Of a stretch of 64,000 nucleotides of DNA, positions 5,826 through 61,729 are shown one piece after another. Both the position numbers and the translations under genes were made by a program. Under the pieces are notes generated by a model. That model was not told where the DNA came from, did not search any database, and saw only the letters and a list, made by a program, of their open reading frames with translations. Position 1 is the first letter of the stretch. Each line of letters opens with the position of its first letter. Source of the DNA: Pseudomonadota bacterium (GTDB lineage Bacteria; Chloroflexota; Ktedonobacteria; Ktedonobacterales; JADMIN01); NCBI GenBank assembly GCA_021324535.1, contig JAJPIU010000203.1:5366-69365 (forward strand). Reading direction: 5' to 3'.

Positions 5826-6647
5826 TCAATCCGTCTCAGGGACAGGCTCGGAGGGAATAGTCGCGTCAGCAGGCGGTATGGGAACAAACGTCTCCTCAGC
5901 TTTAGGCGCCTCTGAATCAACCTCTCTGGTTGTGGGCGCCGATGTGACTGCGCTGGGAACTGCTGTGCTAGTGGCAGCGCGACGCGCAAGCCAGAGGCGC
6001 ACGGCCATGTCGAACAGCAGCACAAACGCGACACAGCCTGCCTCTACGGCAAGGGAATAGCGATTGAGGGGCACATATCGGTTGACCAGTGGATCGCTCA
6101 GCGCGAGGGTAGCGGCGGTGTAGGCGATCACCAGCGCGGCGAGGTCGAGCAGAAGAGGGATACGCTCAATCAATTGGGCAATCAGCGCGCTGGCGATGAA
6201 GAGCAAGACCATACTGATCAGCAAGCCAATGATGACCAGCAAAATATTGCCATGGGCAAGCGCGCCTATCGCCAGGATGTTGTCAATGCTCATCGTGGCG
6301 TCAGCGATCAGGATAGTCACAATTGCTGGAACGATGCTTTCGGAGGCGCGCTTGGCGACATCAGTCGAGGAACTGTCGGGGAGGAGCATATGACAGGCAA
6401 TGAACATCAGCGCCACCGCGCCGATGCTTTGGAGGAGGGGAATACGTAGCACCTCGGTTGCGCCAATTGTTAGCAAGATGCGAAACACAATAGCAGCGAT
6501 TCCGCCCCAGACGATGGCCAGCATGCGACGGCCTGGTGAAAGACGACTGGCGGCGGCTCCGATCACCAGCGCGTTGTCACCGCTCAGCACGATGTCAATC
6601 AAGGCAATACCGGCGACCGATAGGATGAATGTCACAAAGGGATTCAT
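5826..6647 (-). CDS. TerC/YjbE family integral membrane protein
   Basis: The N-terminus MNPFVTFILSVAGIALIDIVLSGDNALVIGAAA and a second DNILAIGALA repeat are the TerC-family paired DN motifs. GAGGGGGG sits 7 nt upstream of the ATG. Confidence 0.85.
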   Translation of the reverse strand: MNPFVTFILSVAGIALIDIVLSGDNALVIGAAASRLSPGRRMLAIVWGGIAAIVFRILLTIGATEVLRIPLLQSIGAVALMFIACHMLLPDSSSTDVAKRASESIVPAIVTILIADATMSIDNILAIGALAHGNILLVIIGLLISMVLLFIASALIAQLIERIPLLLDLAALVIAYTAATLALSDPLVNRYVPLNRYSLAVEAGCVAFVLLFDMAVRLWLARRAATSTAVPSAVTSAPTTREVDSEAPKAEETFVPIPPADATIPSEPVPETD

Positions 6648-33398: not shown

Positions 33399-33447
33399 TA
33401 ATTAGTTGAAACGTGAAAGTCGACAACTTTCTATTGGGAGGGCAAAA

Positions 33448-41316: not shown

Positions 41317-42318
41317 ATGACCTACTCGCCAGCCGGGCGACTGTTGACGCTGCTCGATGTGTTGCAGTCGCGCTCTCGAGTTTCTGCGGCGGAGCTTGCG
41401 GATCGGTTGCAGGTGGAGACGCGCAGCGTGCGGCGCTATATGCTGCTGCTGCAAGATATGGGGATTCCGGTGGAAGCGCGGCGTGGGCGCTACGGCGGCT
41501 ATCGCCTGCGGCCTGGCTACAAACTGCCACCATTGATGCTGACAGATGAAGAGGCGCTGGCGCTGACGCTGGGCCTGCTGACGACGCGGCGCCTGGGGTT
41601 CTTTGGCCTGGCCGACGCAGCGCCTGCCGTGGAAAGCGCGCTGGCGAAGATTGAGCGCGTGCTGCCGGTGGGGCTACGTGAACGCGCCCAGGCGGTGCAG
41701 GCGGCGGTTGCGCTCGACCCCGCAACGCTGGTCATGCCGGAGGCCATGCCACCGGAGTATACGCCAAAAGCGCCTGCGCGGCTGGTGCTGGCGCTCAGCG
41801 CGGCGGCCCGCCAGGGGCAGCGACTCATCCTGCGCTATATTGCTAGCGATGGAGCTGAGACGGTGCGCGGCTTCGATTGCTATGGTCTGGTCTATCACGA
41901 TGGCCGCTGGTATGCTGTGGGGTATTGTCATCTGCGCCAGGCCATCCGCACCTTCCGACTGGATCGCATCCACAGCGCCAAAGAAGACGACGCCAGCTTC
42001 ACACGCCCGGTCGGCTTCGACTGCCTCGCCTACGCGATTCAAGCCTTCGCCGCCTGGCCCGATGCCTGGCGCATCGAGGCACTGATCAAGGCGCCGCTGA
42101 CCACCGTTTATCAGCGTGCGCCAACTGCCTTCGCCAGCCTGGAAGAAGCGACCGATGGCGTAATACTCCGCGCGTATGAGAACGACCTCGATCACGCGGC
42201 GCGCTTTCTGGTTGGCTTGGGGTTGCCCTTCATCGTTCGCCAGCCACCTGAGCTACACGATGCGCTCCAGCAGATCGCCGACGAGATTGCCGCCACGCTG
42301 GCGCGTTCAGCGGGGTAG
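41317..42318 (+). CDS. YafY-family transcriptional regulator (HTH + WYL + WCX domains)
   Basis: N-terminal HTH RLLTLLDVLQSRSRVSAAELADRLQVETRSVRRYMLLLQDMGIPV, then the WYL domain YGLVYHDGRWYAVGYCHLRQAIRTFRLDRI. AGGAGA SD. Confidence 0.9.
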   Translation: MTYSPAGRLLTLLDVLQSRSRVSAAELADRLQVETRSVRRYMLLLQDMGIPVEARRGRYGGYRLRPGYKLPPLMLTDEEALALTLGLLTTRRLGFFGLADAAPAVESALAKIERVLPVGLRERAQAVQAAVALDPATLVMPEAMPPEYTPKAPARLVLALSAAARQGQRLILRYIASDGAETVRGFDCYGLVYHDGRWYAVGYCHLRQAIRTFRLDRIHSAKEDDASFTRPVGFDCLAYAIQAFAAWPDAWRIEALIKAPLTTVYQRAPTAFASLEEATDGVILRAYENDLDHAARFLVGLGLPFIVRQPPELHDALQQIADEIAATLARSAG

Positions 42319-44593: not shown

Positions 44594-47473
44594 TTATACC
44601 AGTGGATTGGCGTCACTGAAGGTCGCTGGTATACGGCGCGAGAGAACAAGATCGGCGGCGCAGCCGATCAGCGGAGCGCCTGACTGTGGCGCATCTGGCG
44701 AACCCAGCGCGGGAGCCGCCGAGTCGAGTGCGGCCAGCCAATCGGCGATCTCCTGGGAGTACGTGCGATTCTCTACGTTCAGGTGCGACCGGCAGATCGC
44801 GGCGTAGCGTTGCGCCTCCGCGAACTTCCCCTGCGCGGCAGCGATACGCGCCAATTTATACGTCGCGTTCACTGCGAGCTTATGGCCGCCGATGATCTCG
44901 CCGATCTCTCGCGCTTCCTCCAGGCAAGCGCGTGCTTCGGCAAACAATGGAGCCAGCCGCTGCAGCGCCTGTGGGTTGTCGTACCATGCCGCGCGCGCCT
45001 GCTTGAGTCGCAGCGCCCCCATAGCGCATAGACTATCGCCTATCAAAAACGGCTGGTCTATCTCACGCGCCAGGCGCAGACATTCCCGCGCGTAGTCGCT
45101 GGCGCAGGCGAACTCGGCCTGTTCACCCATCAGTTCGGTAAGGTTTTCCAGCGCGAGGATCATTCGCGTCGGGTGGCCAATCGCGCGGGCAAGTTCCAGG
45201 CTTTCGAGAAAGAGGCGTTCCGCGTCGTCCATTCGCCCCTGACTCATCGCCGAGGCTCCCAGGTTATTGAGCAGCGCGCTCATCCGCTGGCGCAGCCCAT
45301 GTGCGCGCGCCAACGCCAATCCCTCGTGGAGCAACGCCTCGCCAGCCGCATATTCGCCCCGCATGATAGCCTTGCCTCCCATGTTTTGCAAGAGCATACA
45401 GATCGTTTCGCTATCATGCGCGCGATGCGCCCAGGTCAGACCCAGCCGATAGAGCGCGTCGCCCTGAGGGTAGCGCCCCATGCTATCGGACACCTCGCCC
45501 AGCAGGCGGTAAATCTCGCCCAGGCGGCGGGCGTCGCGGTGAGCATGCGCCAGCGCCAGCTTCAACGATTCCTCGGCGAGTGTATGGTCGCCCGCGCTCA
45601 TCGCCGCCTCGCCCTGGCAGACATAGAACGAGCTGATCAGCGATTCACGCCGACGTGCGCGCTCATCATTCGCTTCTTCACTCAACTCAAGATGATCGAA
45701 CTGCTCGATATGCGCCAGACCACGCTGGCAGGCGGCGGTGGCGGCGGTGTGGCGGCCATAGCGCAAGGCGAGGCGCGCTAACCCCAGTTCGGCCCGCGCA
45801 TGCAGCATCGCTATCTCAAACGAATCGCTTGTGTTCTCATCTTGCTCAGAAATGCTCGTGAGTGAGCGCAACGCAGCATTTAGCGAATCCTCAGCAACGG
45901 CATAGCGCCCGCGCGCTTCGAGATACCCGGCGAAGGCAATGCCTCCGCGCGCTGCCGCAAGCGCCATTCCCTGCCGACGCGCGCTCTGAATCGCCAACGC
46001 GATGTTGTCGGCCTCCGGTTCGAGCAACGCATACTCGTGTTCGTGCGCCTCCGTATAGGCCACATAATAGAGTGCCGCGCGCCTGGCAACAGCGGCGGAG
46101 ACTGACGCCACATCGGTGGACGTTTCATCCTCGCCAACCACCTGCGCGTAGTCATGCGCCGTCTGGTGGAGGGTATATCGCCCCGCGCCGACGCTTTCGA
46201 GCAGACCGGCGTCAACCAATTCGTCGAGCGTCTCGTGCGTGGCCGCGCTGAGCGCCAATGCGGCCTCTTCGGTAAAGCTGTTTGGCTTGGCTGGCAGATA
46301 CGCCAGCGCAGAGAGCGCCCGCCGCGCCGCCGGAGTGAGGGCCGCCGCGCTCATGGCGAGCGCCACCTGTAACGATTGCGCGGCGCCAACCGCCATGCCG
46401 GGTGGCGTTTCCACTGGCGCATATGGGCGCGCCAGACGGAGACGTTTCTCGGCCTGGCGGAGCGAGGCCAGCGCGGCGCTCAGGCGGCGTGGCTGCCCGC
46501 TCTGCGCCTGGATATGCAGATAGGCGCCCATCAATGTCAGCGCCAGCGGCAGGCCACCCACCGCCCGCGCCAGCTCACGTGCCTCGGCCTCGCCCGCGTC
46601 ATTGCAGGTGATGGCGTTTGGGGCAAGCGTGCGCAGCAACGTAGCGCCAGCGTCTTCGTCGAGTTCGCGCACCTGGTATGCGCCATAGGGAGCGAACTGC
46701 CAGCCAAGCGCCGGAAAGCGTGACGTGACAAGGTGCGCGCAGTGTGGGCCACCAATCACCAGCGTCAGCGCGTCTTCGAGCCGCCAGGCGTCGTCAATCA
46801 CCAACAGCAGCCGACGCGCGCCAATCGTCGCACGGATCGCGCGACCCAACGCCTCGATGGTGGTAGCGCGCGCCAGCGTGTCGGCGCTCATACCCAATGC
46901 GGCCCCCCACGCGCCAAGCAGGCTGAGCGTGTCTGGCGTTGGCCCTAGACCGGCCCAGAGCACACCGTCGGGGAAAAGCGCGCGTATCTCAGCGTCGTGC
47001 GCCAGCGCCGTCGCCAGGGTTGTTTTGCCGACGCCGGGCAAGCCGGTCAGCGCAAGCGAGGTGGGAAAGGTCGCCTGCGCAAGCAGTCGTTTCACTTGTC
47101 GAAGATCGTCAGCGCGCCCGATCAAACCACAGACCGGCGCAGCCGCCACAGGCGCCCCAAAGAAAAGTGGCTCCCGACTGCCAGACACAAGGAAATCACT
47201 GCCCAAAGTGGCGATTTGCGCTGACTGTGATACAGGCTGAGGAGCCTCCGCCAACCCCAACGCTTCGGCGCTTTGCTGGAATGTGTCGCAGAGCAACCGC
47301 CGAAAATAGACGCCAGGGTGAGCTTCCCCGCGCTCCCAGCGACCAACCGTCAGCACGCTGACGCCAACTCGTTCGGCCAGCTCTTCTTGCGTCCAGCCGC
47401 ATTGTTCGCGCGCCTGCCTGAGCCACACGTTGGGGCGGCGCGCCGTCTCCTGTTTTTTCTTTGCCACACCCAT
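44594..47473 (-). CDS. XRE-HTH + NB-ARC/STAND P-loop NTPase + TPR regulator
   Basis: N-terminal HTH WLRQAREQCGWTQEELAERVGVSVLTVGRWERG, Walker A GLPGVGKTTLA, Walker B LLVIDDAW, and about 550 aa of TPR-like repeats. The start at 47473 (GGAAGG SD) is preferred over 47572. Confidence 0.85.
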   Translation of the reverse strand: MGVAKKKQETARRPNVWLRQAREQCGWTQEELAERVGVSVLTVGRWERGEAHPGVYFRRLLCDTFQQSAEALGLAEAPQPVSQSAQIATLGSDFLVSGSREPLFFGAPVAAAPVCGLIGRADDLRQVKRLLAQATFPTSLALTGLPGVGKTTLATALAHDAEIRALFPDGVLWAGLGPTPDTLSLLGAWGAALGMSADTLARATTIEALGRAIRATIGARRLLLVIDDAWRLEDALTLVIGGPHCAHLVTSRFPALGWQFAPYGAYQVRELDEDAGATLLRTLAPNAITCNDAGEAEARELARAVGGLPLALTLMGAYLHIQAQSGQPRRLSAALASLRQAEKRLRLARPYAPVETPPGMAVGAAQSLQVALAMSAAALTPAARRALSALAYLPAKPNSFTEEAALALSAATHETLDELVDAGLLESVGAGRYTLHQTAHDYAQVVGEDETSTDVASVSAAVARRAALYYVAYTEAHEHEYALLEPEADNIALAIQSARRQGMALAAARGGIAFAGYLEARGRYAVAEDSLNAALRSLTSISEQDENTSDSFEIAMLHARAELGLARLALRYGRHTAATAACQRGLAHIEQFDHLELSEEANDERARRRESLISSFYVCQGEAAMSAGDHTLAEESLKLALAHAHRDARRLGEIYRLLGEVSDSMGRYPQGDALYRLGLTWAHRAHDSETICMLLQNMGGKAIMRGEYAAGEALLHEGLALARAHGLRQRMSALLNNLGASAMSQGRMDDAERLFLESLELARAIGHPTRMILALENLTELMGEQAEFACASDYARECLRLAREIDQPFLIGDSLCAMGALRLKQARAAWYDNPQALQRLAPLFAEARACLEEAREIGEIIGGHKLAVNATYKLARIAAAQGKFAEAQRYAAICRSHLNVENRTYSQEIADWLAALDSAAPALGSPDAPQSGAPLIGCAADLVLSRRIPATFSDANPLV

Positions 47474-47631
47474 ACCTTCCCATCCATCCAGACATTCGCT
47501 GTTAGACCGTGAGGCTACACGCCCTTGGCTTCTTTGTTTGTCCAGACGGCTCCCCTCTGCTAGAGTTAACACACGCCAGAGGGCGGTCAGGCGACATTAT
47601 TCTACCATACGTTGTCCAGGTGGGCTATCAC

Positions 47632-50442: not shown

Positions 50443-51546
50443 CTACGTTGGCAACACATCGCGCCATTGCTTACCGGCGTTTGTTGTCATCGCGACGCCC
50501 AGCGGATACGAGAAGGCGACATAGACAATGGCGGCACTCGACGGGTCAACGGTGAGCGCGCCGGGGTGCTGGCTGGTCGCGGCGGCAGGCGCCCAACTGT
50601 GGCCGCCGTTGGTAGTCGTGTAGATGGTTGTTCCCCCCAGCGCATAGGCGTTTTGCGGAGATTGGTCACTGGCGATGACCGCCGTAAATGTATCGAGCTG
50701 ATCCACCAGCTTGAAGGTCGCGCCATCGTCGTTCGAGACGAACAGCCCCTGGTCGCCTGGCGCATAGATGGTCTGCCCGGCGCGCGAAACAGTGTAAACG
50801 GCCCCCTGAACGCCAGGCGCAGGCGACCAGCTTTGCCCGTTGTTCTGGCTTTCATAGAGGCCGGTCGAGCGGCTCCATAAGAGCAAGTGGCCGGGGTGCG
50901 CCGGATCATCGAGGATGCCGCTAGGGAGGCTGGTGGGTAGCGTTGGCGCGACCTGCCAGTGTGCGCCCGCATCTTGCGAAATATACAAACCATGCGTGCC
51001 CTGCGTCGAATCAATCGCGAAGACCTCACCCGGCCCGCCCGCGCCGACGCCAAAGGAGAAGACCGCGCTATTGGGGAAGTCTGTCAGCGGCGCAGCCAGT
51101 CGCCAGTGCGCGCCCGCGTCATCGCTGAGATAGAGGCCCGGCGTAGCAGGAGCCGAGGCGCTACGGGGGATCGCCAGCACATAAACCCGTTGCGGTTTGA
51201 CCAGACTCTGCGCCAGTTTATAGAGCATCAAGCCGTCAATTGGCTGGTCTACGCCACCCGCGACCTCAGTCCATGTCTGCCCGGCGTTCGTCGTGCGATA
51301 GAGGCCAAAGTGAGTCGCCAGCAGAACAGTATTGGCGACGCCTCGCAACGCCAGGATGTCATGCGTATGATTGAGCGAGCCGCCGTATGCGCTTGATGAA
51401 GTCGAGGAGCCGCCGGTGGTAGAGGCGCACCCTGCCAGCGCCATCGCAAACAGCGCAAGGGCAATAGCGACGCACAGCCAACAGCGTTGCTGGCGTTTCT
51501 GATCGCCTGGCTTCTTCGCCTCATATCGTATGGGAATAGAGTTCAC
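50443..51546 (-). CDS. BNR/Asp-box repeat beta-propeller lipoprotein (Ycf48/sialidase-like fold)
   Basis: Lipobox LALAGC, plus seven SxDxGxTW-type Asp-boxes (TTNAGQTW, SDDAGAHW, SQDAGAHW, SQNNGQSW, SNDDGATF, TTNGGHSW, TTNAGKQW). Confidence 0.85.
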   Translation of the reverse strand: MNSIPIRYEAKKPGDQKRQQRCWLCVAIALALFAMALAGCASTTGGSSTSSSAYGGSLNHTHDILALRGVANTVLLATHFGLYRTTNAGQTWTEVAGGVDQPIDGLMLYKLAQSLVKPQRVYVLAIPRSASAPATPGLYLSDDAGAHWRLAAPLTDFPNSAVFSFGVGAGGPGEVFAIDSTQGTHGLYISQDAGAHWQVAPTLPTSLPSGILDDPAHPGHLLLWSRSTGLYESQNNGQSWSPAPGVQGAVYTVSRAGQTIYAPGDQGLFVSNDDGATFKLVDQLDTFTAVIASDQSPQNAYALGGTTIYTTTNGGHSWAPAAATSQHPGALTVDPSSAAIVYVAFSYPLGVAMTTNAGKQWRDVLPT

Positions 51547-52850
51547 GATGGAGCGCCTTTCCCGGCATCCGACACTGCATGCGCCTGTCTGGAGCGCGCC
51601 TCTTCCACCTTGCGACGCTGTTGTGCGGCGGCCCTCACCAGCGAGAAAATAGACGCGATCATGATCAGCACAATCACCCCAATGACCACCACATCCACCA
51701 GCGCCGTCGTCTGGCTGCTCAACAGCGGGGGATAGGCGCCCGTCACCAGCGCCGAGGGCGCGCCGCCAACTGCGACCACCCCCAACACATGATGCGTGGT
51801 TGCATCGAAGATCGCCACCTGGCCCACGCCACGCTCGGCCACGAAGCCATATGATCCCTCAAACGTGATAGCAACCGCCGCTGGCTCGCCACTGAAAGGC
51901 AGCAAACGCGCCGGTTCGGTGGGCGGCGCGAAGACACCCTGGCCAGGGTCGGCTACCGGCGTCAGCAAAGCCACCTGCCCCGTCGTCTCGTCAGGAACAT
52001 AGACTTGCCCGGTCGCGGCGTCGTAATCCATCACACCTAACCGGTCGCCGGGCGTCTGCCAGATCGTTCCCAGCAGGCGATGCGCGCTCAGGCTGATTGC
52101 CAGCACTGAGCCGACATCAGTCGTCACATAGGCAATGCCACCCGTCGCGGGAATCGTGACAGCTAGCGGCTCGGCAGGTGTGGGGATGGTTGCGAGAACA
52201 CGCCGCTCGTTGACGCCGATCACTGAGACGCTTTTGCTTCCACTGTTGGCGACATAGACCTCCTCATCGGAGGTATTCTGAATGCCGCTATTGGCGGCGG
52301 CCACCGCGACGCCCGTCGGGTGGCCGCCCACTGGAATCGTCTTCGCCACACGCCGCGCATTCGTATCCACGATGGCAAGCGCATTTGAGCCGCTCTCCAC
52401 TATATAGAGGCTGCTCTGGCTGGGATCAATCGCCAGAGCAGTGGGCGCCTTGCCAAGCGGAATCCTCGCGCTGACCTGCCTGGATTGCGCAGTGACGATG
52501 TCAAGCTGATTAGCCGCCTGCTCTGTCACATAGGCGAAGCGGCTATCCAGGCTGAGCACAACGCCTGCGGGCGAGCCGCCAAGCGTAATGTAACCCGTCT
52601 CGCGCTGCTTTGCTATATCTACGATGGCCAGGTCTTGTCCGTTCGCCCCCGCGCCTGCCACATAGACCAGATTGGGCGCTCCACCGTCGGCCAGCGCGTC
52701 GCCAGGGGAAAGCATACAGGCCAGGGTTAGTAGGGGTAGCAACACAACAAAGAGGACAGCAAGACAGACCCCAGAGATGGATGGCAGCCAGCATGTTTGA
52801 GGATGCGCTTGAGGATAGGTATGTCCGGTCGTTGGCCTCTCCGCGCGCAT
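51543..52850 (-). CDS. YVTN-family beta-propeller repeat protein with N- and C-terminal TM anchors
   Basis: Repeated units of the type AYVTEQAANQLDIV, LYIVESGSNALAIVDT, VYVANSGSKSVSVI and AYVTTDVGSVLAI. Its stop overlaps the start of the BNR gene by 4 nt. Confidence 0.85.
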   Translation of the reverse strand: MRAERPTTGHTYPQAHPQTCWLPSISGVCLAVLFVVLLPLLTLACMLSPGDALADGGAPNLVYVAGAGANGQDLAIVDIAKQRETGYITLGGSPAGVVLSLDSRFAYVTEQAANQLDIVTAQSRQVSARIPLGKAPTALAIDPSQSSLYIVESGSNALAIVDTNARRVAKTIPVGGHPTGVAVAAANSGIQNTSDEEVYVANSGSKSVSVIGVNERRVLATIPTPAEPLAVTIPATGGIAYVTTDVGSVLAISLSAHRLLGTIWQTPGDRLGVMDYDAATGQVYVPDETTGQVALLTPVADPGQGVFAPPTEPARLLPFSGEPAAVAITFEGSYGFVAERGVGQVAIFDATTHHVLGVVAVGGAPSALVTGAYPPLLSSQTTALVDVVVIGVIVLIMIASIFSLVRAAAQQRRKVEEARSRQAHAVSDAGKGAPS

Positions 52851-52855
52851 GAATA

Positions 52856-54028
52856 CTACTCCCAGATCAACTCTTGCTCGGCAGGATAAACCGCTGGCTG
52901 TTCAGCGAATATGTCATCAGCCGCCTCTTCGACATACTCGCCCGCCGCCCATCGTTCGGCGCGATCCAACGCGCTGACCCAGCGGAAGAACAACGCACTC
53001 AGCACAATGATCAGCGGGATGTCCATCACCAGCCACATGGTCAGCCCGGCCAGTTGTTGGTCGCCCAGTCGGGTGAAGCCCCACAGCAGCGGCGCGTTGT
53101 CATAGGTATGATAGAGAGGCTGCGCCGCGAAGGTGAGAATGGCGCCCAGCGCCATCATGGGCTGCGTGCTGATGAACATATACAGCATACCAAAAAGCGG
53201 TGAGATGCGCTTGGCCACCTCGTTGGCCGGGCTAAGGATCGGCGCCCAATAGAGCAGCGCCGTACCGATGAAGAGCAGATTCATCAGGACATGCAACGGA
53301 TTGTGCGTGCGCGCCAGGGTCGCCAGCGGGGTCAGCGCAGTCACATCCAGCGCGCCCCAGGCAGCCAGCCCAATTACTACAATAATCCCAGCCAGCAAGA
53401 AGAGCGTCTGCGGCCAGCCTGAGGCGCCGTCCTGCAATCTCCTATCTTTGCGCCCTGTGAACAGCATTCCCAATCTGGGCGCGAACATCAGCGCGCCTAG
53501 CAGCAGAACGCCTCCCACCGCCAGATTCTCGATGATCCAGGTCGCCTCGACAACCGGTTGCGGTGGCGTGGCGTCGAACACCGCCGGAATGTGCCAGAGC
53601 CACATATTGGCGTTATACAGCCCAAACGCGACAACCGGATGCGTCAGCCGACGTGTCACATGCCGCGCGGTCTCGCCCCGCACAAGCGAGGTGAGCATCC
53701 AGCCAGGCGTGGCCAGCAGTAGCAGCGGCGGACACACCACAGAGAAAAGCAAATGCTGCATCATGTGCATGGTCAGCGAATAGGTCATGCCCAACGTTTC
53801 GAGCGGCGAGAAGAGGCCAAGCGCCAGCAACGCCATCACACCGAAAAAGAGCGGCGGCTGCCAGCTATGCACAGGCGCGTCAGCTCCCAATCCTCCCAAT
53901 CGTCGGCGCAATGGGCCAAGCGCATAGAGATAGGCTCCCAGGACACCAAGAACGATAACCAGGGTAAGCGGCTCGAAGTTCCAGCTTGCCCATAGGGGAA
54001 TCGGTGTCGCGTTCGCCGCAGGGTTCAT
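52856..54028 (-). CDS. ctaG: Cytochrome c oxidase assembly factor CtaG-like membrane protein (caa3_CtaG family)
   Basis: Polytopic membrane protein with the family-typical MHMMQHLLFSVVCPPLLLLATP motif. It ends 5 nt upstream of the YVTN gene. Confidence 0.75.
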   Translation of the reverse strand: MNPAANATPIPLWASWNFEPLTLVIVLGVLGAYLYALGPLRRRLGGLGADAPVHSWQPPLFFGVMALLALGLFSPLETLGMTYSLTMHMMQHLLFSVVCPPLLLLATPGWMLTSLVRGETARHVTRRLTHPVVAFGLYNANMWLWHIPAVFDATPPQPVVEATWIIENLAVGGVLLLGALMFAPRLGMLFTGRKDRRLQDGASGWPQTLFLLAGIIVVIGLAAWGALDVTALTPLATLARTHNPLHVLMNLLFIGTALLYWAPILSPANEVAKRISPLFGMLYMFISTQPMMALGAILTFAAQPLYHTYDNAPLLWGFTRLGDQQLAGLTMWLVMDIPLIIVLSALFFRWVSALDRAERWAAGEYVEEAADDIFAEQPAVYPAEQELIWE

Positions 54029-54320
54029 GAACTATTGCCTTTTCACATACGTTCGAGGTCTCCCATGAGTGTAACCTGGGAGGCGGATGACTGTCTATCG
54101 GGAAACAGCCGTATTGGACATAAAGCGCCTTCGCCATTTCTACATACTTATCCGCTCTGATACTCCATACTGATCCCGATAGGCGCCATCCCAATCGGGT
54201 ACGCTATGATCATCATGATCGGCGCATGCCACGTATTCGCCCTCTACCTTGCTTGCCTATGGAGGCCAGTATGGACTCCCTATCTTCCAGATCAATGCTC
54301 CTACCATCAAGATACCTGGC

Positions 54321-54341
54321 TGTGACACATCATGTGTCACA
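54321..54341. promoter_or_regulatory. Perfect 10-bp inverted repeat TGTGACACAT-c-ATGTGTCACA, candidate operator
   Basis: Read directly. It lies 14 nt upstream of the GTG at 54355, in the divergent region between ctaG and the three-gene two-component operon. Confidence 0.5.
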
Positions 54342-54354
54342 TAGCAGGAGAAAC

Positions 54355-54975
54355 GTGGCTCTGTCCAATGGCGCAAATCAGCGCCAACCAACTGACCAGC
54401 TAGGGCACGTGCGGAAGGGCTTCTGGGCGCTGCTGGCGCTGACCATCGTCGCGGCGTTTGCCCTGCCGATCAGCGTCTACTACACCACAACGACTACATC
54501 GCTTGTGGCGCATCTCTGCCTGTGGCCCACTGTGCCTGCTGTTGATACGCCCACGCGGCTGATCATTCTGCTTGCGCCTGGACGCGACAGCGCAGACACG
54601 CAAGGCCCCTGGGCGCAGGCAAGCGCGCAGTGGGATATGCTCTCGATGGAGATGGGACAGCAGCGTGCGGCGGTTTCGGGCGCTGACGCCAGTTACGGCA
54701 TATTCGTTCTGCCGCTCTCATTACAGATGGTTGGCTCCTGGCGCGCGACTGTGCGGCTGCAAACGCCTGGCCGTCCCCTCTGGCAGCAAAGCATCCAGTT
54801 CGACGCCCGACCACAGGCCACCCGTAGTAGCCATGCCGCGATCCCATCGCTTCAGGCACTGCTCTCCTACTGCCAATCGCGCCAGCATGCCACAGTTTCC
54901 AGCGCCCTGGCGGCAGGCGCGACGCTCTATGCCTGCGACGCCAGGGCATGGCCTGAACGTGGAGGTGGTGTATGA
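54355..54975 (+). CDS. Membrane-anchored YtkA/FixH-like domain protein, first gene of the two-component operon
   Basis: One TM segment (FWALLALTIVAAFALPISVYY), then a domain with WDMLSMEMGQQ...GIFVLPLSLQMVGSWRATVRL. That domain is paralogous to the C-termini of the CopCD fusion and SCO proteins in this window. The ORF is open from 54226, but the GTG at 54355 after AGGAGA is preferred. Its stop overlaps the kinase start. Confidence 0.6.
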   Translation: MALSNGANQRQPTDQLGHVRKGFWALLALTIVAAFALPISVYYTTTTTSLVAHLCLWPTVPAVDTPTRLIILLAPGRDSADTQGPWAQASAQWDMLSMEMGQQRAAVSGADASYGIFVLPLSLQMVGSWRATVRLQTPGRPLWQQSIQFDARPQATRSSHAAIPSLQALLSYCQSRQHATVSSALAAGATLYACDARAWPERGGGV

Positions 54976-56192
54976 GCGCGGCGCCAATGCAGGAATCCTT
55001 CCGGCCCCATCTGCTTGCCATCAAAAGATTGCTTGCCACGCTACGAAGATACAGCGAGCGTGCGTTGGCAAGGCTGCGGTTCTCCACATTTGAGAAGGCG
55101 ATTCTGGCGAACAGCGTGATCATCCTGCTGGGAACGGCGGCGGGCTGGTGGATCACACAACACAATCCCGAAGCCTATCATTATGTGATTGATACCACGT
55201 TTATCGCGCTGGTGGCGCTGGCAGGCGTCGTCGTCAACTTCGCGCTGTTGCGCGCGGCGTTTGGGCCGTTACGCGCCGTGCTGGCGACCATCCGCACGGT
55301 GGAGGAAGGCGAGATGGATGCGCGCGTGGAGAGCGTCGGCAGCGATCCCGATGCAGAAACGCTGGCACGCGCCTTCAACGATATGCTCGACCGGCTGGCG
55401 CGGGCGCGCGATGAAACAGTAGCGCGCGAACTACGCGCGCAAGAGGCGGAGCGTAGACGCCTGGCGCTGGAATTGCACGACCAGACGGGCCAAAGCCTGA
55501 CAGCGATGGCGCTCCATGCGCAAGCCATCGCACAACGATTGGCGGGCGAAACAAGCGTCGCCTCGCGGCAAGCGCGCGCGCAGGCTGAGCAATTGGCGAC
55601 GCTGGCTGAGCGTACCCTGGCCGAAACACAGGCGCTCTCGCACCAGTTGCGTCCCTCGCTGCTGGATGATCTTGGCCTGGCGGCGGCGTTGCGCTGGCTG
55701 GCAGACGACGCCAACGCACGCCTGGGCATCAAGGTGTGCGCTGAGGTAGATAAAATGGATGTTGAGGCGCTCACCAAGACGCGCCTGCCTGACGAGATCG
55801 AGACGGCGATGTTTCGCATCGCACAGGAAAGCCTGACCAACGCCGTCAAGCATGGCATGGCCCGGCATGCGACGATCATCCTGCGCCAGACACGCGATAG
55901 CCTCACACTGACCATTACTGACGACGGCCAGGGATTCGACCCCGCACGGATGGGAGCCGCTGCCTCACATGCAGTCTCTATGCAGCCACAAGGGATCGGC
56001 CTGGCGGGTATGCGCGAACGTGCGCGACTGGCGGGAGGCGCATTGATGATATGCCCGGCGCCGGAGCACGGTTGCCAGGTGCGCGTCAGCATTCCGTTGG
56101 GCATGGAACCTTCATCAGTGGAAGTGGGCCATGAGGCGGCAAGCTGTCAAAGAGCGCATAGTCCCATACATAAGCAGGAGGCGCCGGTATGA
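54972..56192 (+). CDS. Sensor histidine kinase (HisKA_3/NarL-partner type), intramembrane-sensing architecture
   Basis: Two TM helices separated by only about 11 aa (TQHNPEAYHYV), a HAMP-like linker, the H-box ELHDQTGQSLTAMALH, and a HATPase domain (N-box SLTNAVKHG, GIGLAGMRER). Confidence 0.9.
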   Translation: MSAAPMQESFRPHLLAIKRLLATLRRYSERALARLRFSTFEKAILANSVIILLGTAAGWWITQHNPEAYHYVIDTTFIALVALAGVVVNFALLRAAFGPLRAVLATIRTVEEGEMDARVESVGSDPDAETLARAFNDMLDRLARARDETVARELRAQEAERRRLALELHDQTGQSLTAMALHAQAIAQRLAGETSVASRQARAQAEQLATLAERTLAETQALSHQLRPSLLDDLGLAAALRWLADDANARLGIKVCAEVDKMDVEALTKTRLPDEIETAMFRIAQESLTNAVKHGMARHATIILRQTRDSLTLTITDDGQGFDPARMGAAASHAVSMQPQGIGLAGMRERARLAGGALMICPAPEHGCQVRVSIPLGMEPSSVEVGHEAASCQRAHSPIHKQEAPV

Positions 56193-56956
56193 CGACGGAC
56201 GCACAATCAAGCGGTGGGATCATCCGGGTGCTGCTAGCCGATGATCACGACATACTGCGCGACGGTTTGCGGGCGCTGCTCGACCTTGCCGACGACATCG
56301 AGGTGGTAGGCGAGGCGCGCACCGGCGGCGAGGCGGTCGCTGAGGCGGCGCGTCTGCGCCCGCATGTCGCGTTGGTGGATATCAGCATGCCGGAGATGGA
56401 TGGCGTGGAGGCGTGTCGGCGTATCCGACAGCAGGCGCCGGAAACGCGCGTGCTCTTTCTCACCATGCACGAGGCCGAGGAATATTTCTTCCAGGCACTA
56501 TGCGCGGGGGCCGCTGGCTATATCATCAAGCGCACTGCCTCGGCGGAGTTGCTGGCGGCGATACGCGCGGTGGCGCGCGGCGAGTCGTTCCTTTCGCCAG
56601 GAATGACGCAGGCGCTTGTCAACGCCTATATAGATCGCCGGTCGCCGCATCAGCGCGCCGAGGCGGCTCAAACAATCGGCGGCAAGGGCCAGAGCGCCCA
56701 AGACACCCACATGGGAAACGCACAACAGCCGGTCAATCAGTTCGACCGCTATGCGACCCTGACTCCGCGTGAACGCGAGGTGTTGCAACTGGTGGGCGAA
56801 GGCTACACCAACCAGGAGATCGCCGACCGGCTAGGATTGAGCGTGAAAACGGTGCAGACACACCGCGCCGCCGTGATGGAAAAGCTCGGACTGCGCGACG
56901 TGACACATCTTGTGCGCTACGCCGTGCGGCGTGGTCTGGTTGACCCTGAACGCTGA
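56189..56956 (+). CDS. NarL/LuxR-family response regulator
   Basis: Receiver domain (RVLLADDHD...VALVDISMPEMDG...), a long linker, and the LuxR HTH (LTPREREVLQLVGEGYTNQEIADRLGLSVKTVQTHRAAVMEKLG). 4-nt overlap with the kinase gene. Confidence 0.9.
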   Translation: MTTDAQSSGGIIRVLLADDHDILRDGLRALLDLADDIEVVGEARTGGEAVAEAARLRPHVALVDISMPEMDGVEACRRIRQQAPETRVLFLTMHEAEEYFFQALCAGAAGYIIKRTASAELLAAIRAVARGESFLSPGMTQALVNAYIDRRSPHQRAEAAQTIGGKGQSAQDTHMGNAQQPVNQFDRYATLTPREREVLQLVGEGYTNQEIADRLGLSVKTVQTHRAAVMEKLGLRDVTHLVRYAVRRGLVDPER

Positions 56957-57077
56957 AAGATGGCGCCTCCATACATACATGCTCGTAATTGGGTAGTCTT
57001 CCCCGTGGAAAAATCGGGAAGTAGCCCGATACCAACACGCCAACGAAACGCCTATGCTACCAATGCGCAGCGCGTGT

Positions 57078-57101
57078 ATATCCACATATCCACATATCCA
57101 T
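57078..57101. repeat. 3 x 8-bp tandem repeat ATATCCAC (third copy ATATCCAT) upstream of copC
   Basis: Read directly, flanked by GTGTA...TACAC, about 70 nt upstream of the copC start. Confidence 0.85.
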
Positions 57102-57170
57102 ACACGAAGCGCATGGCTCCCAAAGGGGAGCGCGTTCCATCGTTGATAATCCCAGGAGGACAGTACCCGT

Positions 57171-57839
57171 ATGCTTCGTCTGCTTCATTATTTTATCCTA
57201 CGCGCACAGCGGATGGGATTGAAGGCGCTGGCCGGAGCAGGTCTGGCGCTGCTGGCAGCATTACTGATCTCGCCAGCCATCATTCAAGCTGCCCCGGCGC
57301 AGAACGTCAGCCCCAAGGTGGCTTTTCACGCCTACTATACCGGCTCGGTTCCCAAAGCCAACGCGATCCTCAAGACGGCTCCGACGCAGGTGATCGTTCA
57401 TTTTGCAGAGAATGTCAATCCTCAGGGGAGTGACGTGATTGTCTACGGCTCCAAGGGCGATCAGGTCAGCACGGCTCCTGCCCAGGTTGACCGCGCCGAC
57501 CTGAAGACAATGACTGTCCCAATGAAGGGCGACGGATCGGAAATCTACTTTGTTGTGTGGCATACTGTCTCCGCTGACGACGGCGACCCCGACATCGGTG
57601 GCTTCAACTTCCTGGTCAACGCCGATGCAAGCTCTGTGCAAGCAGTGCAATCGGCCAATGGCACAGGAAGCAACACCACCGCGACGAACACATCTTCTTC
57701 GTCAGGGACACCGATCTGGCTGACGATCCTGATCGCCATTGCGGCGCTGCTCGTGGGGGCTGGCGCGCTCTACTTCGCGCAACGTTCAGGCTGGGCGCCG
57801 ACGCCTGGAGGCGGACCGGCGACAGCGAAGGCAAAATGA
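57171..57839 (+). CDS. copC: CopC-domain copper-binding protein with C-terminal TM anchor
   Basis: Signal peptide, then HAYYTGSVPKANAILKTAPTQVIVHFAENVNP...VVWHTVSADDGDPDIGGFNFLV (CopC/YobA pattern with N-terminal His), an S/T-rich linker and a TM segment. Confidence 0.8.
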   Translation: MLRLLHYFILRAQRMGLKALAGAGLALLAALLISPAIIQAAPAQNVSPKVAFHAYYTGSVPKANAILKTAPTQVIVHFAENVNPQGSDVIVYGSKGDQVSTAPAQVDRADLKTMTVPMKGDGSEIYFVVWHTVSADDGDPDIGGFNFLVNADASSVQAVQSANGTGSNTTATNTSSSSGTPIWLTILIAIAALLVGAGALYFAQRSGWAPTPGGGPATAKAK

Positions 57840-57902
57840 GAACCACTGAACCTGCCTGCGCTACAATACAATACGAATTGTAACTGTGGGGGTACTCTTT
57901 AC

Positions 57903-60350
57903 ATGGAAGGCGAACCAACAAGGGAGGATAGCGTGAGCAGGAGGAGAGAGCGGCAAACGGGATGCGACGCGACGCATACATTAGGGAAGCGCCCATACCG
58001 CCTGTGGCGCTCTGCGCTCATGCCGCTCACTGTCCTGTTGGCTGCTCTCATGCTGGGCGCCGGTTTGCTTCCTGGCACAACGCCAATCGCGCTGGCTGCT
58101 CCTCTGACAACCAACGTGCCACAGCATCCAACCACTGCGCTGCATGCGTTGCCGGTGCGCGAAGACCCGCCTGCCGACGCGATTCTTCAGGCGCCACCCT
58201 CGCAGGTGCGGATGTGGTTTAGCGAAGACCTCAACCCACTGACCTCGAAGATTGTCGTGGTCTCTACGACGAACCACGAGGTTGACCTGGGCGACAGCCA
58301 TGTGGTGGCTGACAACCCACGCGAGATGATCGTCTCGCTGCCGCTGCTGAGCGCAGGAACCTATGTGGTCGTCTGGCGCACGCAATCCGCTGAAGATGGC
58401 CATATCGTCAGCGGCTCGTATATCTTCCGCATCGCCCGGCCAGATGGCAGCGTGCCACCCATCCCGAAGGTGCTGCCCACCTCGCATATCATCGGTGGTG
58501 GGCAGGCGCTCGCCACTGGCACACTGGATGGCCCTACCACCGTCCAGGCGATTATGACGTGGCTGGCGCTGCTCTTCATGGTCTTCTGGGTGGGCGGCGT
58601 CATCTGGGAGACATGGATACTTGCCCCCAGGCTGCAAACCGATCCCGATCTTCGGGCGGCGGCTCAGGCGGCTGTCGCGCGCTTCCGCACTTTGGCCCCC
58701 TATGTGCTGGCCGCGTTGCTTGTCGCGGACGTGGGGATCATCCTGGCGGAGGCCGCCGAGCTGGCTGGCGACTGGTCGGGCGCGTTCTCGCCAATATTGC
58801 TGCGGGCGATCATCTTTGGCAGCCGCTACGGCCTCTTCTGGTGGATGCGCCAGCTTGTGGCGCTCGCTGCGCTTGCCGCCACGCTGCTGATTCGCCCTCC
58901 CGTCGAGACAACAGGCGCTGAAGCGGACGAGGAACAGGCAAGTGAAATGCCATCCCATCCCATCTTCAGCGCCGGAGACGAGACCGCGACCCAGGCGATC
59001 CCTGACTGGCGGCGCGAACTGGTGAAAACGCTTCGCGACATACCACAACTTCCCCGGCAGCTCTGGCGCGGGTTGCGGGCGCGCTCTGGCGAGGGAGTTT
59101 TGTCACTGCTGTTGGGCGCCGCGCTGATCGCCGCCTTTGCGCTCTCTGGCCATGCCGCCGCCGTCAGCGCCTCTGAACTTGGCTACGCGCTCAGCGTGGA
59201 TATATTCCATCTGATCGCCACCACCGCCTGGCTGGGCGGACTGCTCTATATCGCGGTTGTGCTACTGCCGGCATTGCGTGGGCTGACCTCATATCAGCGG
59301 GCGCGTGTGGTGGCGCTTGGCCTGCCACAGTTTGGCGCGCTGGCGCTGGTCTGCGCGGTTCTGCTTGCGGCCACCGGCTCGCTCAACACGGCGATCCACC
59401 TGACCTCCATCGAGCAATTCTTCACAACGACCTATGGCCGCACACTGGCCGTCAAGATCGAACTCTTCCTGATCATGGCGGCAATCAGCGCCTACCATGC
59501 GTTCTTCCTGCGGCCACGGCTGGCGCACGTCCTGACAGAGGAAACTTCCTCGCCCGGCAAACCTGATGCAGGTTCACAACGCAAGCGGTATAATGAGCCT
59601 CAGGGGGAAACGCCGAGGCAGCGACGCAGCCCAGCGAGCGGTGAGCGGGCAAAGCGAAATGTAGCGCCGACCAGCGGCAAAAACGCGCTTGCCATTGCAG
59701 GAGCCACCGGTTCAGGCTCATACGGCCTGCGCATGGGACGAATGGGACGAATGGGCACGACAAGTTCCATAAACGCTGCCCACCAGGCAAACGGTCATGC
59801 GCGCCAGAACGATTCCCAGGCAGAGCCAACTTCGTCCAATGACGACGCCAGCCAGGGGTCATCTTCGGCGCAACGGTTGACGCATGCGATAGAAGATTGG
59901 CTGCGGCGTGAAGCCACCCTGGGAGTTGGCGTATTACTCTGTGTGGCGTTGTTGGGCGCCTTCGCCGGTTCACTCTATTCGCTGCCATTGGCGCCTTCCG
60001 CCCATTCGTCGGGAGCCTTCACGCAGATGAAAACGGCTGGCGGCTATCATATCTCACTGACCGTCACGCCCGACGCCTTTGGAACCAACACCTTTAACGT
60101 GACGCTGACGAACACACAGGGGCAGCCGGTCAATGGGGCGGCCGTCCTGATTCAGACGAACGATCTGGATATGGATATGGGCGTGCAGAGCGCACAATTG
60201 AAAGCGGTGGGAGCGTCGTCGCCAGGAGTCTACTCCGGGCAGAGTGATCTGACGATGGCGGGCCACTGGCAGATCACCGTGAAGGTGTTGCCGCCCGGCA
60301 GTCAACAATTCGTCATCACATCATTTAAGCTGACGGCGACGTATTCTTGA
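57903..60350 (+). CDS. CopC-CopD fusion copper transport/resistance protein with C-terminal YtkA-like domain (YcnJ-like)
   Basis: N-terminal CopC (HALPVREDPPADAILQAPPSQVRMWFSE...VVWRTQSAEDGHIVSGSYIFRI), an 8-10 TM CopD core, a disordered linker, and a C-terminal domain (LDMDMGVQ...GVYSGQSDLTMAGHWQITVKV). The start is uncertain (57903, GTG 57933 or ATG 58020). Confidence 0.85.
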   Translation: MEGEPTREDSVSRRRERQTGCDATHTLGKRPYRLWRSALMPLTVLLAALMLGAGLLPGTTPIALAAPLTTNVPQHPTTALHALPVREDPPADAILQAPPSQVRMWFSEDLNPLTSKIVVVSTTNHEVDLGDSHVVADNPREMIVSLPLLSAGTYVVVWRTQSAEDGHIVSGSYIFRIARPDGSVPPIPKVLPTSHIIGGGQALATGTLDGPTTVQAIMTWLALLFMVFWVGGVIWETWILAPRLQTDPDLRAAAQAAVARFRTLAPYVLAALLVADVGIILAEAAELAGDWSGAFSPILLRAIIFGSRYGLFWWMRQLVALAALAATLLIRPPVETTGAEADEEQASEMPSHPIFSAGDETATQAIPDWRRELVKTLRDIPQLPRQLWRGLRARSGEGVLSLLLGAALIAAFALSGHAAAVSASELGYALSVDIFHLIATTAWLGGLLYIAVVLLPALRGLTSYQRARVVALGLPQFGALALVCAVLLAATGSLNTAIHLTSIEQFFTTTYGRTLAVKIELFLIMAAISAYHAFFLRPRLAHVLTEETSSPGKPDAGSQRKRYNEPQGETPRQRRSPASGERAKRNVAPTSGKNALAIAGATGSGSYGLRMGRMGRMGTTSSINAAHQANGHARQNDSQAEPTSSNDDASQGSSSAQRLTHAIEDWLRREATLGVGVLLCVALLGAFAGSLYSLPLAPSAHSSGAFTQMKTAGGYHISLTVTPDAFGTNTFNVTLTNTQGQPVNGAAVLIQTNDLDMDMGVQSAQLKAVGASSPGVYSGQSDLTMAGHWQITVKVLPPGSQQFVITSFKLTATYS

Positions 60351-60379
60351 GGCATTTCGCAGCATAGGGGAGAAAAACA

Positions 60380-61729
60380 ATGAGTCGGCCAGCAGCGTCT
60401 ACCAAAGCGCGTCCTCAGAGCGCCAGGGTTTCCGGCGTCCGACGCCAGCCGCCGACAGGAGCGACAGGAGCAACCGGAGCAACCGGGCAGGCGAGCAAGA
60501 AGAGCAGCGCGTCGTCGGCTGGTTCGGTGAAGGAGCGCTCATCTGCGGTTGTTTCGCAGGCCATGCGAACAGCGCCGTCCGGCGCAGCGGCTGAACAGGG
60601 GAAGCGTGAGACCGTCACGCCAAAGGCCAACACGGCCAAAGCAGCGTCGCGTCCTCCCACGAAGACAAGCAGTAAACCACCGAAGAAAGGCAATTCAGGC
60701 GAACTGCTTGCGGCATTGGCGAAGCTACCAATACGCTGGCTGGCGTTTGGCGCCGTGCTGGTTGCGCTCATTGCCGGTTCGTTCGCGCTCTATCGCGCCT
60801 TTGGCCCCAATGCGGGAAGCGGCTCTACAAGCGGCGGGTCTTCATCCATCTCCGCGCTGCAAGGCGATGACCTCGGCGGGACGCCAGCGCCAAACTTCAC
60901 GCTGACCGATCAAAACGGCAATCCAGTCACGCTCAGTTCGTTGCGTGGCCACCTGATCGCGCTGACCTTCTTCGATTCGCTCTGCCCACATACCGACTGT
61001 TCGTTGATGGCGCAGTATGTGATGGCGAGCGCCAATCTGATGACGCCACAGGAGCGCGCACAGGTGACATGGCTGGCGATCAGCCTAAATCCCTGGCACG
61101 ACACCCCCGCCACGGCCAAAACGTTTTTGTCGTCACACAATGTGACGATCCCCATGCGCTATCTGCTTGGCACGCTGGGGCAGGTCGCTCCCGTCTGGAG
61201 CGACTATCACATGGAATCAATTCTGCAATCCAACGGCATTGTCATCCATACCACCGGCCTCTATATCATCGATCAGCAGGGACTTGAGCGCGTCTTCCTC
61301 GAAGAGGGATTCGATCCCCATATGCTGGCGGACGACCTGCATCTACTGCTGACGAAGCATATTCCTATCAGCGCCAGGGCCACAGCGCAAAGCGATAACT
61401 CCGTCTCGCTGACGCAATCTACAAACACCGGAACGCTGACCCTGCGCGCCATCCCTGGCCAGTATGGCACGTATGACTTCGAGTTATGGGTGTGGGACGC
61501 GAACCAACAACCTGTGCAAGCCGCCCAGGCGACGCTTGATCTGACGATGACCGATATGGTGATGCAGCCGGTGCATGTCGTCTTCCAGCCGGACGCAGAC
61601 CTCGGCTCAGGCGTCTATCAGGCGCACGGCGTGGTCTCGATGGCAGGCCATGCGAAGGTGGTGGTGAATGTGCAGCCGCTGAGTGGCTCGCCCATTCAGG
61701 CGACATTTTACTTCACCGCGAAGTATTGA
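60380..61729 (+). CDS. SCO1/SenC-family thioredoxin-fold copper chaperone with N-terminal disordered region and C-terminal YtkA-like domain
   Basis: FTLTDQNGNPVTLSSLRGHLIALTFFDSLCPHTDCSLM ... HTTGLYIIDQQG fits the SCO pattern, though the Cys motif is CPHTDC rather than the usual CxxxC. The C-terminal ~100 aa are paralogous to the CopCD C-terminus. Confidence 0.75.
   Translation: MSRPAASTKARPQSARVSGVRRQPPTGATGATGATGQASKKSSASSAGSVKERSSAVVSQAMRTAPSGAAAEQGKRETVTPKANTAKAASRPPTKTSSKPPKKGNSGELLAALAKLPIRWLAFGAVLVALIAGSFALYRAFGPNAGSGSTSGGSSSISALQGDDLGGTPAPNFTLTDQNGNPVTLSSLRGHLIALTFFDSLCPHTDCSLMAQYVMASANLMTPQERAQVTWLAISLNPWHDTPATAKTFLSSHNVTIPMRYLLGTLGQVAPVWSDYHMESILQSNGIVIHTTGLYIIDQQGLERVFLEEGFDPHMLADDLHLLLTKHIPISARATAQSDNSVSLTQSTNTGTLTLRAIPGQYGTYDFELWVWDANQQPVQAAQATLDLTMTDMVMQPVHVVFQPDADLGSGVYQAHGVVSMAGHAKVVVNVQPLSGSPIQATFYFTAKY

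Follow-up and report, generated by a model that had tools for sequence, protein, structure and literature searches.

The copper and oxidase-assembly locus

We analysed a 64-kb stretch (hereafter the window) of contig JAJPIU010000203.1 in assembly GCA_021324535.1, which comes from a soil-dwelling Ktedonobacterales bacterium (phylum Chloroflexota). Open reading frames (ORFs) and Pfam matches delineate, between 50.4 and 61.7 kb of the window, a cluster of genes for copper handling and cytochrome-oxidase assembly, which includes the three tightly packed genes considered here as a candidate three-component copper-responsive module. The first of these, at 54355..54975 (coordinates refer to the forward strand unless stated otherwise), encodes a stand-alone, membrane-anchored YtkA/CrdA-like protein of 206 amino acids (aa); ytkL and YtkL are the labels given here to this gene and to the corresponding protein family. 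Alternative annotated starts lie at 54226 and 54271, the GTG start at 54355 is preceded by AGGAG, and conservation of the YtkL sequence begins only at GHVRKGFW. The second gene (54972..56192) encodes a histidine kinase with two transmembrane (TM) helices, HAMP, HisKA_3 and HATPase_c domains, and the third (56189..56956) a NarL/FixJ-type response regulator with REC and GerE helix-turn-helix (HTH) domains, according to Pfam. Successive genes overlap by 4 nucleotides (nt) at both junctions, with ATGA at the boundary between ytkL and the kinase gene; a first-pass annotation of the window had noticed these overlaps, and the ORF coordinates bear them out.

Downstream on the same strand lie copC (57171..57839; Pfam CopC, 49.7 bits), whose product has a C-terminal TM anchor by hydropathy, copCD (57903..60350), a YcnJ-like CopC-CopD-YtkA fusion recognised by Pfam, and sco (60380..61729), in which Pfam and BLASTP identify a SCO1/SenC domain fused to a YtkA-like C-terminus. 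Divergently from ytkL, the reverse strand carries ctaG (Caa3_CtaG; 52856-54028) and the genes for a YVTN beta-propeller protein (51543-52850) and a BNR/sortilin-like lipoprotein (50443-51546), all three assigned by Pfam. The functional statements made below on this family, which belongs to an understudied lineage known mostly from metagenome-assembled genomes (MAGs), are comparative.

A domain common to YtkL, CopCD and SCO

The first-pass annotation had held that one domain of ~90 aa, described as Met-rich and YtkA/FixH-like, recurs in three proteins of the window. Pfam alone gave a mixed answer: the YtkA model (PF13115) passed its cut-off in the C-terminus of CopCD (44.4 versus 25.9 bits), remained sub-threshold in the C-terminus of SCO (16.8 bits, E = 0.011) and did not match YtkL. 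BLASTP connected YtkL with the CopCD C-terminus over both the TM helix and the domain (E = 2e-6), and the CopCD domain with that of SCO (E = 9e-7). A profile hidden Markov model (HMM) built from 42 aligned YtkL-family members and run against all six-frame ORFs of the window matched just three of them, YtkL itself (6e-60), the CopCD C-terminus (5.7e-7) and the SCO C-terminus (8.8e-4), with the next-best ORF at E = 0.25. Pfam YtkA was in turn matched at E <= 1 by 22 of the 42 family members, the best at 1.5e-5. Because of the BLASTP and family-profile evidence, and despite the mixed Pfam answer, we accept the homology of the three domains as real.

The domain occupies residues 711-794 of CopCD (nt 60033-60284), where hydropathy places a TM helix of its own in front of it, so that the CopC-CopD fusion does end in a YtkA domain as had been noted from the letters alone. 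In SCO it covers about residues 335-449 (nt 61382-61726). YtkL is the stand-alone and membrane-anchored copy that had been described, with a single TM segment by hydropathy. The motifs M-x2-M-x-M and M-x-G-x-W are present in all three domains, and yet "Met-rich" overstates the case, given that the YtkL sandwich described below contains 4 Met in 103 residues. A His after M-x-G was considered as a marker to tell chaperones from sensors and was rejected, as the CopCD domains have His at this place and the SCO domains mostly Gln.

Predicted structure and conserved residues of YtkL

An exhaustive HMMER search of 1.84 billion proteins recovered 58 representatives of the YtkL family, most of them 140-250 aa long and with the same layout, which makes it a tiny family restricted to the Ktedonobacterales lineage; an initial word-based homologue search had yielded two clusters only. 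Two proteins of ~1250 aa each (P0049 and P0056) are hit by the YtkL profile over 13 short segments, around the helix and the first strands, probably as a result of repetitive or low-complexity sequence.

The AlphaFold2 model of YtkL, computed from a 42-sequence alignment (predicted local distance difference test, pLDDT, 84.5; predicted template-modelling score, pTM, 0.71), comprises a juxtamembrane motif and TM helix (residues 21-47, nt 54415..54495; membrane part ~23-41 by hydropathy), a seven-strand immunoglobulin (Ig)-like beta-sandwich (residues 52-152, nt 54508..54810) that begins only ~4 residues past the end of the helix, and a C-terminal helix (residues 166-186). The short N-terminus bears a net positive charge, and the sandwich is therefore placed outside the cytoplasm. 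No lipobox was found in YtkL, which has the TM helix instead (AlphaFold2, hydropathy). Foldseek searches with the model returned generic Ig-like folds, with Helicobacter pylori CrdA (9ll4 and 9ll2; the matches include apo and silver-bound forms), PmoD, FetP and CopC, all of them copper proteins, among the top matches. The YtkL-family profile also detected the CrdA sequence (E 0.0021), aligning M95-x2-M98-x-M100 and M125-x-G-x-W129 of YtkL with the Met-rich loop and the LSMNGTW segment of CrdA, respectively. CrdA has been reported to bind copper via its Met-rich region (PMC9182242).

The first YtkL motif (WDMLSMEM, nt 54637..54654) would provide Cu(I) ligands, and the second (M125-x-G127-x-W129, MVGSW) lies at nt 54727..54741. 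Seven residues (P38, M95, M98, M125, G127, W129 and W143) are invariant in all 42 aligned members, and three others are nearly so (R20 and M100 in 41, W24 in 38), which means that three of the four conserved Met of the sandwich are invariant and the fourth, M100, is missing once. No column of conserved His was found in the 42-member alignment. Several of the conserved positions fall in or beside the anchor helix, a pattern that appears to exceed what a passive tether would predict. Two Cys also covary: C55 (54517-54519) and a Cys in the tail (C173, 54871-54873) occur together in 26 of the 42 sequences, the tail Cys alone in 9, C55 alone in 0 and neither in 7, which suggests that a C55-C173 disulfide fastens the C-terminal helix to the sandwich.

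A histidine kinase with an 11-residue outer loop

The sensor region of the kinase (55098..55250) consists, by hydropathy, of TM1 (residues 43-61), a loop (residues 62-72, TQHNPEAYHYV, nt 55155-55187) and TM2 (about residues 73-93). It is followed directly by HAMP, HisKA_3 and HATPase domains, and neither Pfam nor hydropathy revealed any further input domain before HAMP, in agreement with the earlier description of two TM helices around an 11-residue loop and no sensor domain. Mean pairwise identities among 19 species differ strongly between regions of the protein: the loop is the most conserved of all (86%, with 5 of its 11 columns invariant), ahead of TM1 (76%), the dimerisation and histidine phosphotransfer (DHp) domain (74%), TM2 (69%), the catalytic domain (51%) and the cytoplasmic N-terminus (21%). 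The loop Glu and the second loop His persist even in a deep branch of the family described below (TRITLEPYHYV and TRLSQEPWHYL). The first loop His is not conserved, being Q in one genome (L016) of a 16-species alignment and absent in the deep branch. Since the loop is the most conserved part and no other input domain is present, its sequence clearly points to the membrane and loop region as the site of input.

Intramembrane-sensing kinases, in Mascher's definition, have two TM helices joined by an outer linker of less than about 25 residues and no more input. The kinase of the window has this architecture (TM helices at 43-61 and 75-93, 11-residue loop), and its genomic link with an accessory membrane protein is conserved as well; by analogy with known members of the class, that protein may supply the signal. 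The kinase and its partner thus form a good candidate for an accessory-protein-dependent intramembrane-sensing system, the new element being an accessory protein of the YtkA type.

The regulator belongs to the NarL/FixJ class (Pfam Response_reg, 99 bits; GerE, 70.8 bits), as had been proposed; NCBIfam reports generic MctR/NarL similarity below the cut-offs, and the HTH is 82% identical across species.

Conserved association of ytkL with the kinase and copper genes

To sample the association from both directions, we used degenerate DNA patterns that describe either the Met motifs of YtkL only or the loop of the kinase only, and so carry no information on the partner. The YtkL pattern retrieved 16 loci from species-representative genomes, all of them Ktedonobacterales or Chloroflexia MAGs, and in 15 an orthologous kinase gene (52-61% identity) lies directly downstream of ytkL, followed by the regulator gene (65-80% identity) wherever the contig or the fetched stretch reaches that far. 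The loop pattern retrieved 13 kinase loci from metagenomes; upstream sequence is available for 12 of them, and in 10 of these an intact ytkL immediately precedes the kinase gene. One of the remaining two (L027, 139-1703) contains only a degraded-looking remnant of the ytkL C-terminus, at the end of the contig. About 19 of 26 loci retain the stop-start overlap between ytkL and the kinase gene (ATGA or GTGA), and in the others the kinase gene has its nearest in-frame start 3-31 nt beyond the stop codon of ytkL, with the exception of L026, for which the scan yielded no clean junction. Altogether, the triad, whose presence in other genomes the first-pass annotation had made a touchstone of its proposal, occurs in ~30 independent loci sampled from either partner, so that this check does not refute the proposal.

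The order ytkL-kinase-regulator is also retained in the deep branch, whose members are 23-26% identical to YtkL of the window. Two of these loci (L043 and L044) read copC-copCD-ytkL-kinase-regulator, and a third (L041) reads copC-ytkL-kinase-regulator and lies beside a CopA-type ATPase. The triad in this third locus (686-4688) is flanked by the CopA-type P-type ATPase and a PpoB2-YtkA protein, which again connects YtkA domains with copper export. Genes for CopC, CopCD, SCO, CtaG, YVTN or BNR proteins adjoin the triad in 10 of the 11 genome loci with enough flank, and copper genes are adjacent in most of the metagenome loci.

An operator-like element shared by ytkL and copC promoters

The intergenic region between the divergent ytkL and ctaG promoters contains, upstream of ytkL, a direct repeat of the form TACTTATCC-N14-TACTGATCC (54145..54181), the second copy of which is extended as ATCCCGATA. 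We regard this repeat as a candidate operator of the regulator. Exact TACTNATCC sites occur only twice in the 64-kb window, at 54145 and 54168, that is, 23 nt apart and both between ctaG and ytkL. Across genomes the consensus is TACTNWTCC followed by ATCCCRATR, 22-24 nt apart, preceding ytkL or copC, and this box agrees with the NarL heptamer TACYYMT. The same dyad, with 22-23 nt spacing, is found upstream of ytkL in L013, L004, L010 and L017, and L013 has another perfect dyad past the regulator gene. Perfect dyads number 3 in the loci; the total rises to 14 when up to 3 mismatches are allowed, versus 3.6 in shuffled sequences. The 164 kb of loci contain 9 perfect TACTNWTCCC sites, 8 of which are located on the coding strand, either upstream of ytkL or immediately past the regulator gene. 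A blind search for k-mers enriched upstream of ytkL was not significant, and the motif appeared only when individual hits were aligned.

Alignment with L036, whose YtkL is 47% identical, revealed conserved blocks that cover both repeats, a TATGAT hexamer and a promoter-like site of ctaG. TATGAT (54205..54210) resembles a -10 element and may be assigned to ytkL; it lies within the block TACG(C/A)TATGATC conserved in L036, and no match to a -35 element was seen for it in the sequence. The promoter-like site for the ctaG-YVTN-BNR genes (TAGACA-18-TACACT; 54068..54097, reverse strand) emerged from a consensus scan, and both of its hexamers fall within blocks conserved in L036.

About 10 loci have the half-site ATCCCRATR at the promoter of ytkL or of copC, and in L006, L011, L034, L041 and L043 it lies upstream of copC with another ATCC box 23-24 nt further upstream. 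In the window itself, a weak, degenerate dyad precedes copC (TAGTCTTCCCC and GTAGCCCGATAC, ~24 nt apart; 56994..57033). It consists of one box with 1 mismatch, at 56994, and a second half matched to ATCCCGATA by eye, and is not significant alone. Taken across the lineage, an operator-like element is thus common to the ytkL and copC promoters, which fits what would be expected if a single regulator controlled both. Two other features lie in the same stretch: a tandem ATATCCAC-ATATCCAC-ATATCCATAC (57078-57103), ~70 nt upstream of copC, which has the ATCC core of the ytkL repeat at 8-nt spacing, and an inverted repeat, CTTCCCCGTGGAAAAATCGGGAAG (56998-57021), just past the regulator gene and with no T-run, which might act as a weak terminator or else be bound by a protein.

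A putative three-component copper-sensing module

Known extracytoplasmic copper sensing uses kinases with periplasmic domains of their own, such as CusS and CopS, and, to our knowledge, the way in which monoderm bacteria gauge the copper supply of their respiratory oxidases is poorly understood. The reading that we favour, and to which we give about an even chance, is that YtkL, the kinase and the regulator form a three-component copper-responsive module, with YtkL as co-sensor, that governs genes for copper acquisition and oxidase assembly. YtkL, held by its one helix, would display the Ig-like YtkA/CrdA-type domain on the outer face of the membrane, where the Met/Trp set (the four conserved Met plus Trp) would bind Cu(I), as sites of this kind do, possibly delivered by the neighbouring trafficking proteins CopC, CopCD and SCO. 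The kinase, devoid of a sensor domain, would read the copper loading of YtkL through helix-helix and domain-loop contacts and set the phosphorylation state of the NarL-type regulator. The regulator would in turn bind the TACTNWTCC repeats upstream of ytkL, for autoregulation and possibly for control of the divergent ctaG operon, as well as the related boxes upstream of copC-copCD-sco. The signal may be copper sufficiency rather than toxicity, because the neighbours (a YcnJ-like importer, SCO and CtaG) serve uptake and assembly, not efflux. A bolder version, which we put forward only tentatively, makes YtkL the first input module of an intramembrane-sensing kinase to have a copper-chaperone fold, reporting the loading of the pathway from CopC/CopCD through SCO to the oxidase instead of free copper. 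By analogy, such a sensor would be of the need-based or flux type, like BceAB-BceS for antibiotics.

If the co-sensor role is true, it adds signalling to the functions of the YtkA family, and a metal-binding accessory protein joins the short list of three-component systems. The module offers three handles, namely the four conserved Met, the conserved kinase loop and a defined DNA box.

Several observations weigh against this reading. The characterised relatives of YtkL, CtaK and the YtkA domain of YcnJ, are copper-delivery factors, not sensors (PMC13344008, PMC9145763), and in copMRS a copper-binding protein comes first in a two-component operon merely as a resistance protein (PMC4335983). YtkL evolves faster (~44% identity) than the kinase loop (86%), and it matched nothing in Pfam, where the 54226 product was scanned, or in NCBIfam. 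A perfect box was sought upstream of copC in the window and only degenerate copies were found, and the regulon claim is therefore weak for this locus. The two proteins are, moreover, separable, since ytkL occurs without a kinase gene, right after copC-copCD, in L006 and L042, and the kinase occurs without ytkL in L031 (59-1168), where the conserved loop is retained and biotin carboxylase-type genes lie upstream. Finally, the kinase loop, with its conserved Glu and His, might bind metal directly. As for the two kinase-less genes, the one in L006 (2873-3727) is split by a frameshift and the same MAG holds a full triad (L019), and the solo ytkL of L042 lies at 6001-6435.

The first of three alternatives, that YtkL is a CtaK-like chaperone or buffer that delivers copper together with CopC/CopCD and SCO and, in the manner of CopM, is only co-transcribed with and controlled by a two-component system whose kinase senses alone, is a possible explanation that we rate clearly below the co-sensor. 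YtkA-family proteins of known role are copper-delivery factors (PMC13344008, PMC9145763, PMC13068155), and the copMRS operon sets a precedent (PMC4335983). The kinase-less genes behind copC-copCD fit a chaperone, as do the position of ytkL between copCD and the kinase gene in L043, the divergent ctaG and the Met motifs that YtkL has in common with the YtkA domains of CopCD and SCO. Nevertheless, a chaperone would leave unexplained why the start-stop overlap with the kinase gene is conserved and the adjacency near-obligate from both sampling directions, and a third YtkA domain would seem redundant next to those of CopCD and SCO. The conserved residues in and beside the anchor helix, and a kinase with no other input domain, likewise speak for YtkL as co-sensor.

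It is rather improbable that the kinase loop, through its Glu and the His at the start of TM2, senses the metal itself, with YtkL handing over or shielding copper or acting as an inhibitor in the manner of LiaF. No part of the kinase is more conserved than the loop, whose Glu and second His survive in the deep branch as part of E-P-x-(Y/W)-H-Y, and the kinase of L031 has no ytkL next to it. In LiaFSR and VraTSR, too, the gene for LiaF or VraT comes ahead of that for LiaS or VraS (PMC3543457, 10.1101/2025.01.23.634444). On the other hand, the first loop His is not conserved, a metal site with a single Glu and a single His from each monomer would be thin, and the Met set of YtkL is left unexplained if the protein is a mere inhibitor. 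Short-loop sensing of metals does exist, through the ExxE motifs of PmrB, ColS and BqsS. Both this alternative and the chaperone still take the three genes as one functional copper module.

We consider it very unlikely that the module answers a non-copper signal (envelope or redox stress, or another thiophilic metal such as silver) and lies beside copper genes as a reflection of shared membrane biogenesis: although the kinase core is LiaS-like, generically only (NCBIfam Strep_LiaS, 89 bits versus a cut-off of 450), and Met clusters bind Ag(I) too, CrdA having been solved with silver, copC, copCD, sco and ctaG are repeatedly associated with it, in ~20 loci and, with a CopA-type ATPase, in the deep branch, the accessory domain is homologous to copper-handling domains, and the operator-like element is shared with copC promoters.

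Comparison with known systems

The proposed module resembles, in outline, the LiaFSR and VraTSR systems of Firmicutes, with which it shares the order accessory membrane protein, kinase and NarL-type regulator, and a two-TM kinase with a very short outer loop, HAMP and HisKA_3 (PMC3543457). It differs from them in its accessory protein, a YtkA/CrdA-like beta-sandwich and not a LiaF or VraT homologue, in its kinase, which falls far short of the Strep_LiaS cut-off, and in its context, which is copper trafficking here and cell-wall stress there.

With CtaK of Bacillus subtilis and the YcnJ domain, YtkL has in common the family, by profile and Pfam, an extracytoplasmic, membrane-tethered location and the association with Sco, CtaG and CopC-CopD (PMC13344008, PMC9145763). 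CtaK, however, is a lipoprotein in which His (His118) and Met ligands are conserved and the tail is rich in His, whereas YtkL has an N-terminal TM helix, no conserved His and a Cys pair; furthermore, no kinase is encoded with CtaK, which is known to act in CuA assembly, not in signalling, and is needed for cytochrome caa3 activity in a manner that copper can suppress. H. pylori CrdA is the closest match in both solved structure (9ll2, 9ll4) and sequence, has a Met-rich loop that binds Cu/Ag (PMC9182242) and is a member of a copper-responsive two-component (CrdRS) regulon. Unlike YtkL, it is a soluble periplasmic resistance protein, a target of CrdRS that is not encoded beside the kinase and has not been proposed as its sensor.

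The Synechocystis copMRS operon likewise begins with a gene for a copper-binding extracytoplasmic protein and encodes a copper-responsive two-component system (PMC4335983), but CopM has another fold and acts in resistance or buffering and not as a demonstrated co-sensor. Its partner kinase CopS, moreover, has a sensor domain of its own, and the regulator CopR is of the OmpR type. In HbpS-SenS-SenR, LpqB-MtrAB and ChvE-VirA, the kinase receives its signal from a binding protein that is secreted or anchored (PMC3754957, PMC13068155). The binding proteins of these systems have other folds and other ligands, and none is YtkA-like. The NCBIfam model for heavy-metal sensor kinases scores the kinase of the window at 31 bits versus a cut-off of 292. 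CusRS, CopRS and PcoRS combine a periplasmic sensor domain with HisKA and an OmpR-type regulator, in contrast to the HisKA_3 kinase without periplasmic domain and the GerE-type regulator described here.

Full-text literature searches retrieved no description of a YtkA-domain partner of a kinase. This agrees with what the first-pass annotation had surmised and with a 2025 paper stating that experimental work on YtkA domains had been confined to B. subtilis, where they are copper-delivery factors (PMC12362106).

SCO-YtkA fusions and other features of the window

The sco product of the window (Pfam SCO1-SenC, 48.4 versus 22.8 bits) has ~100 clusters of homologues in Ktedonobacterales (P0063-P0161). 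Most of them carry PF13115, and the SCO-YtkA fusion is therefore the rule in this order. As a genomic pattern, the fusion lends independent support to the partnership between CtaK and Sco proposed for CuA assembly in B. subtilis. The cysteine motif of the protein also departs from the canonical CxxxC of SCO proteins, reading C-P-H-T-D-C (Cx4C; SCO residues 196-201, ~60965-60982), and C-P-H-(T/G)-(D/E)-C is kept in the five orthologues examined (window, L003, L005, L008 and L036).

The genes for CtaG, the YVTN protein and the BNR protein go with the triad in L003, L005, L019, L026, L034 and L036. The YVTN protein has a C-terminal TM anchor and, together with the BNR/sortilin-like lipoprotein, accompanies the copper and kinase cluster in many genomes; the two proteins may act outside the cytoplasm as partners, hitherto unrecognised, in the handling of copper or the assembly of the oxidase. 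Elsewhere in the window, and with no relation to the copper cluster, are genes for two signalling ATPase/TPR proteins with an HTH (33406-34935, forward strand, and 44594-47572, reverse strand), of which one combines HTH_3, NB-ARC and TPR and the other HTH and TPR, and for a WYL-domain regulator (41317-42318).

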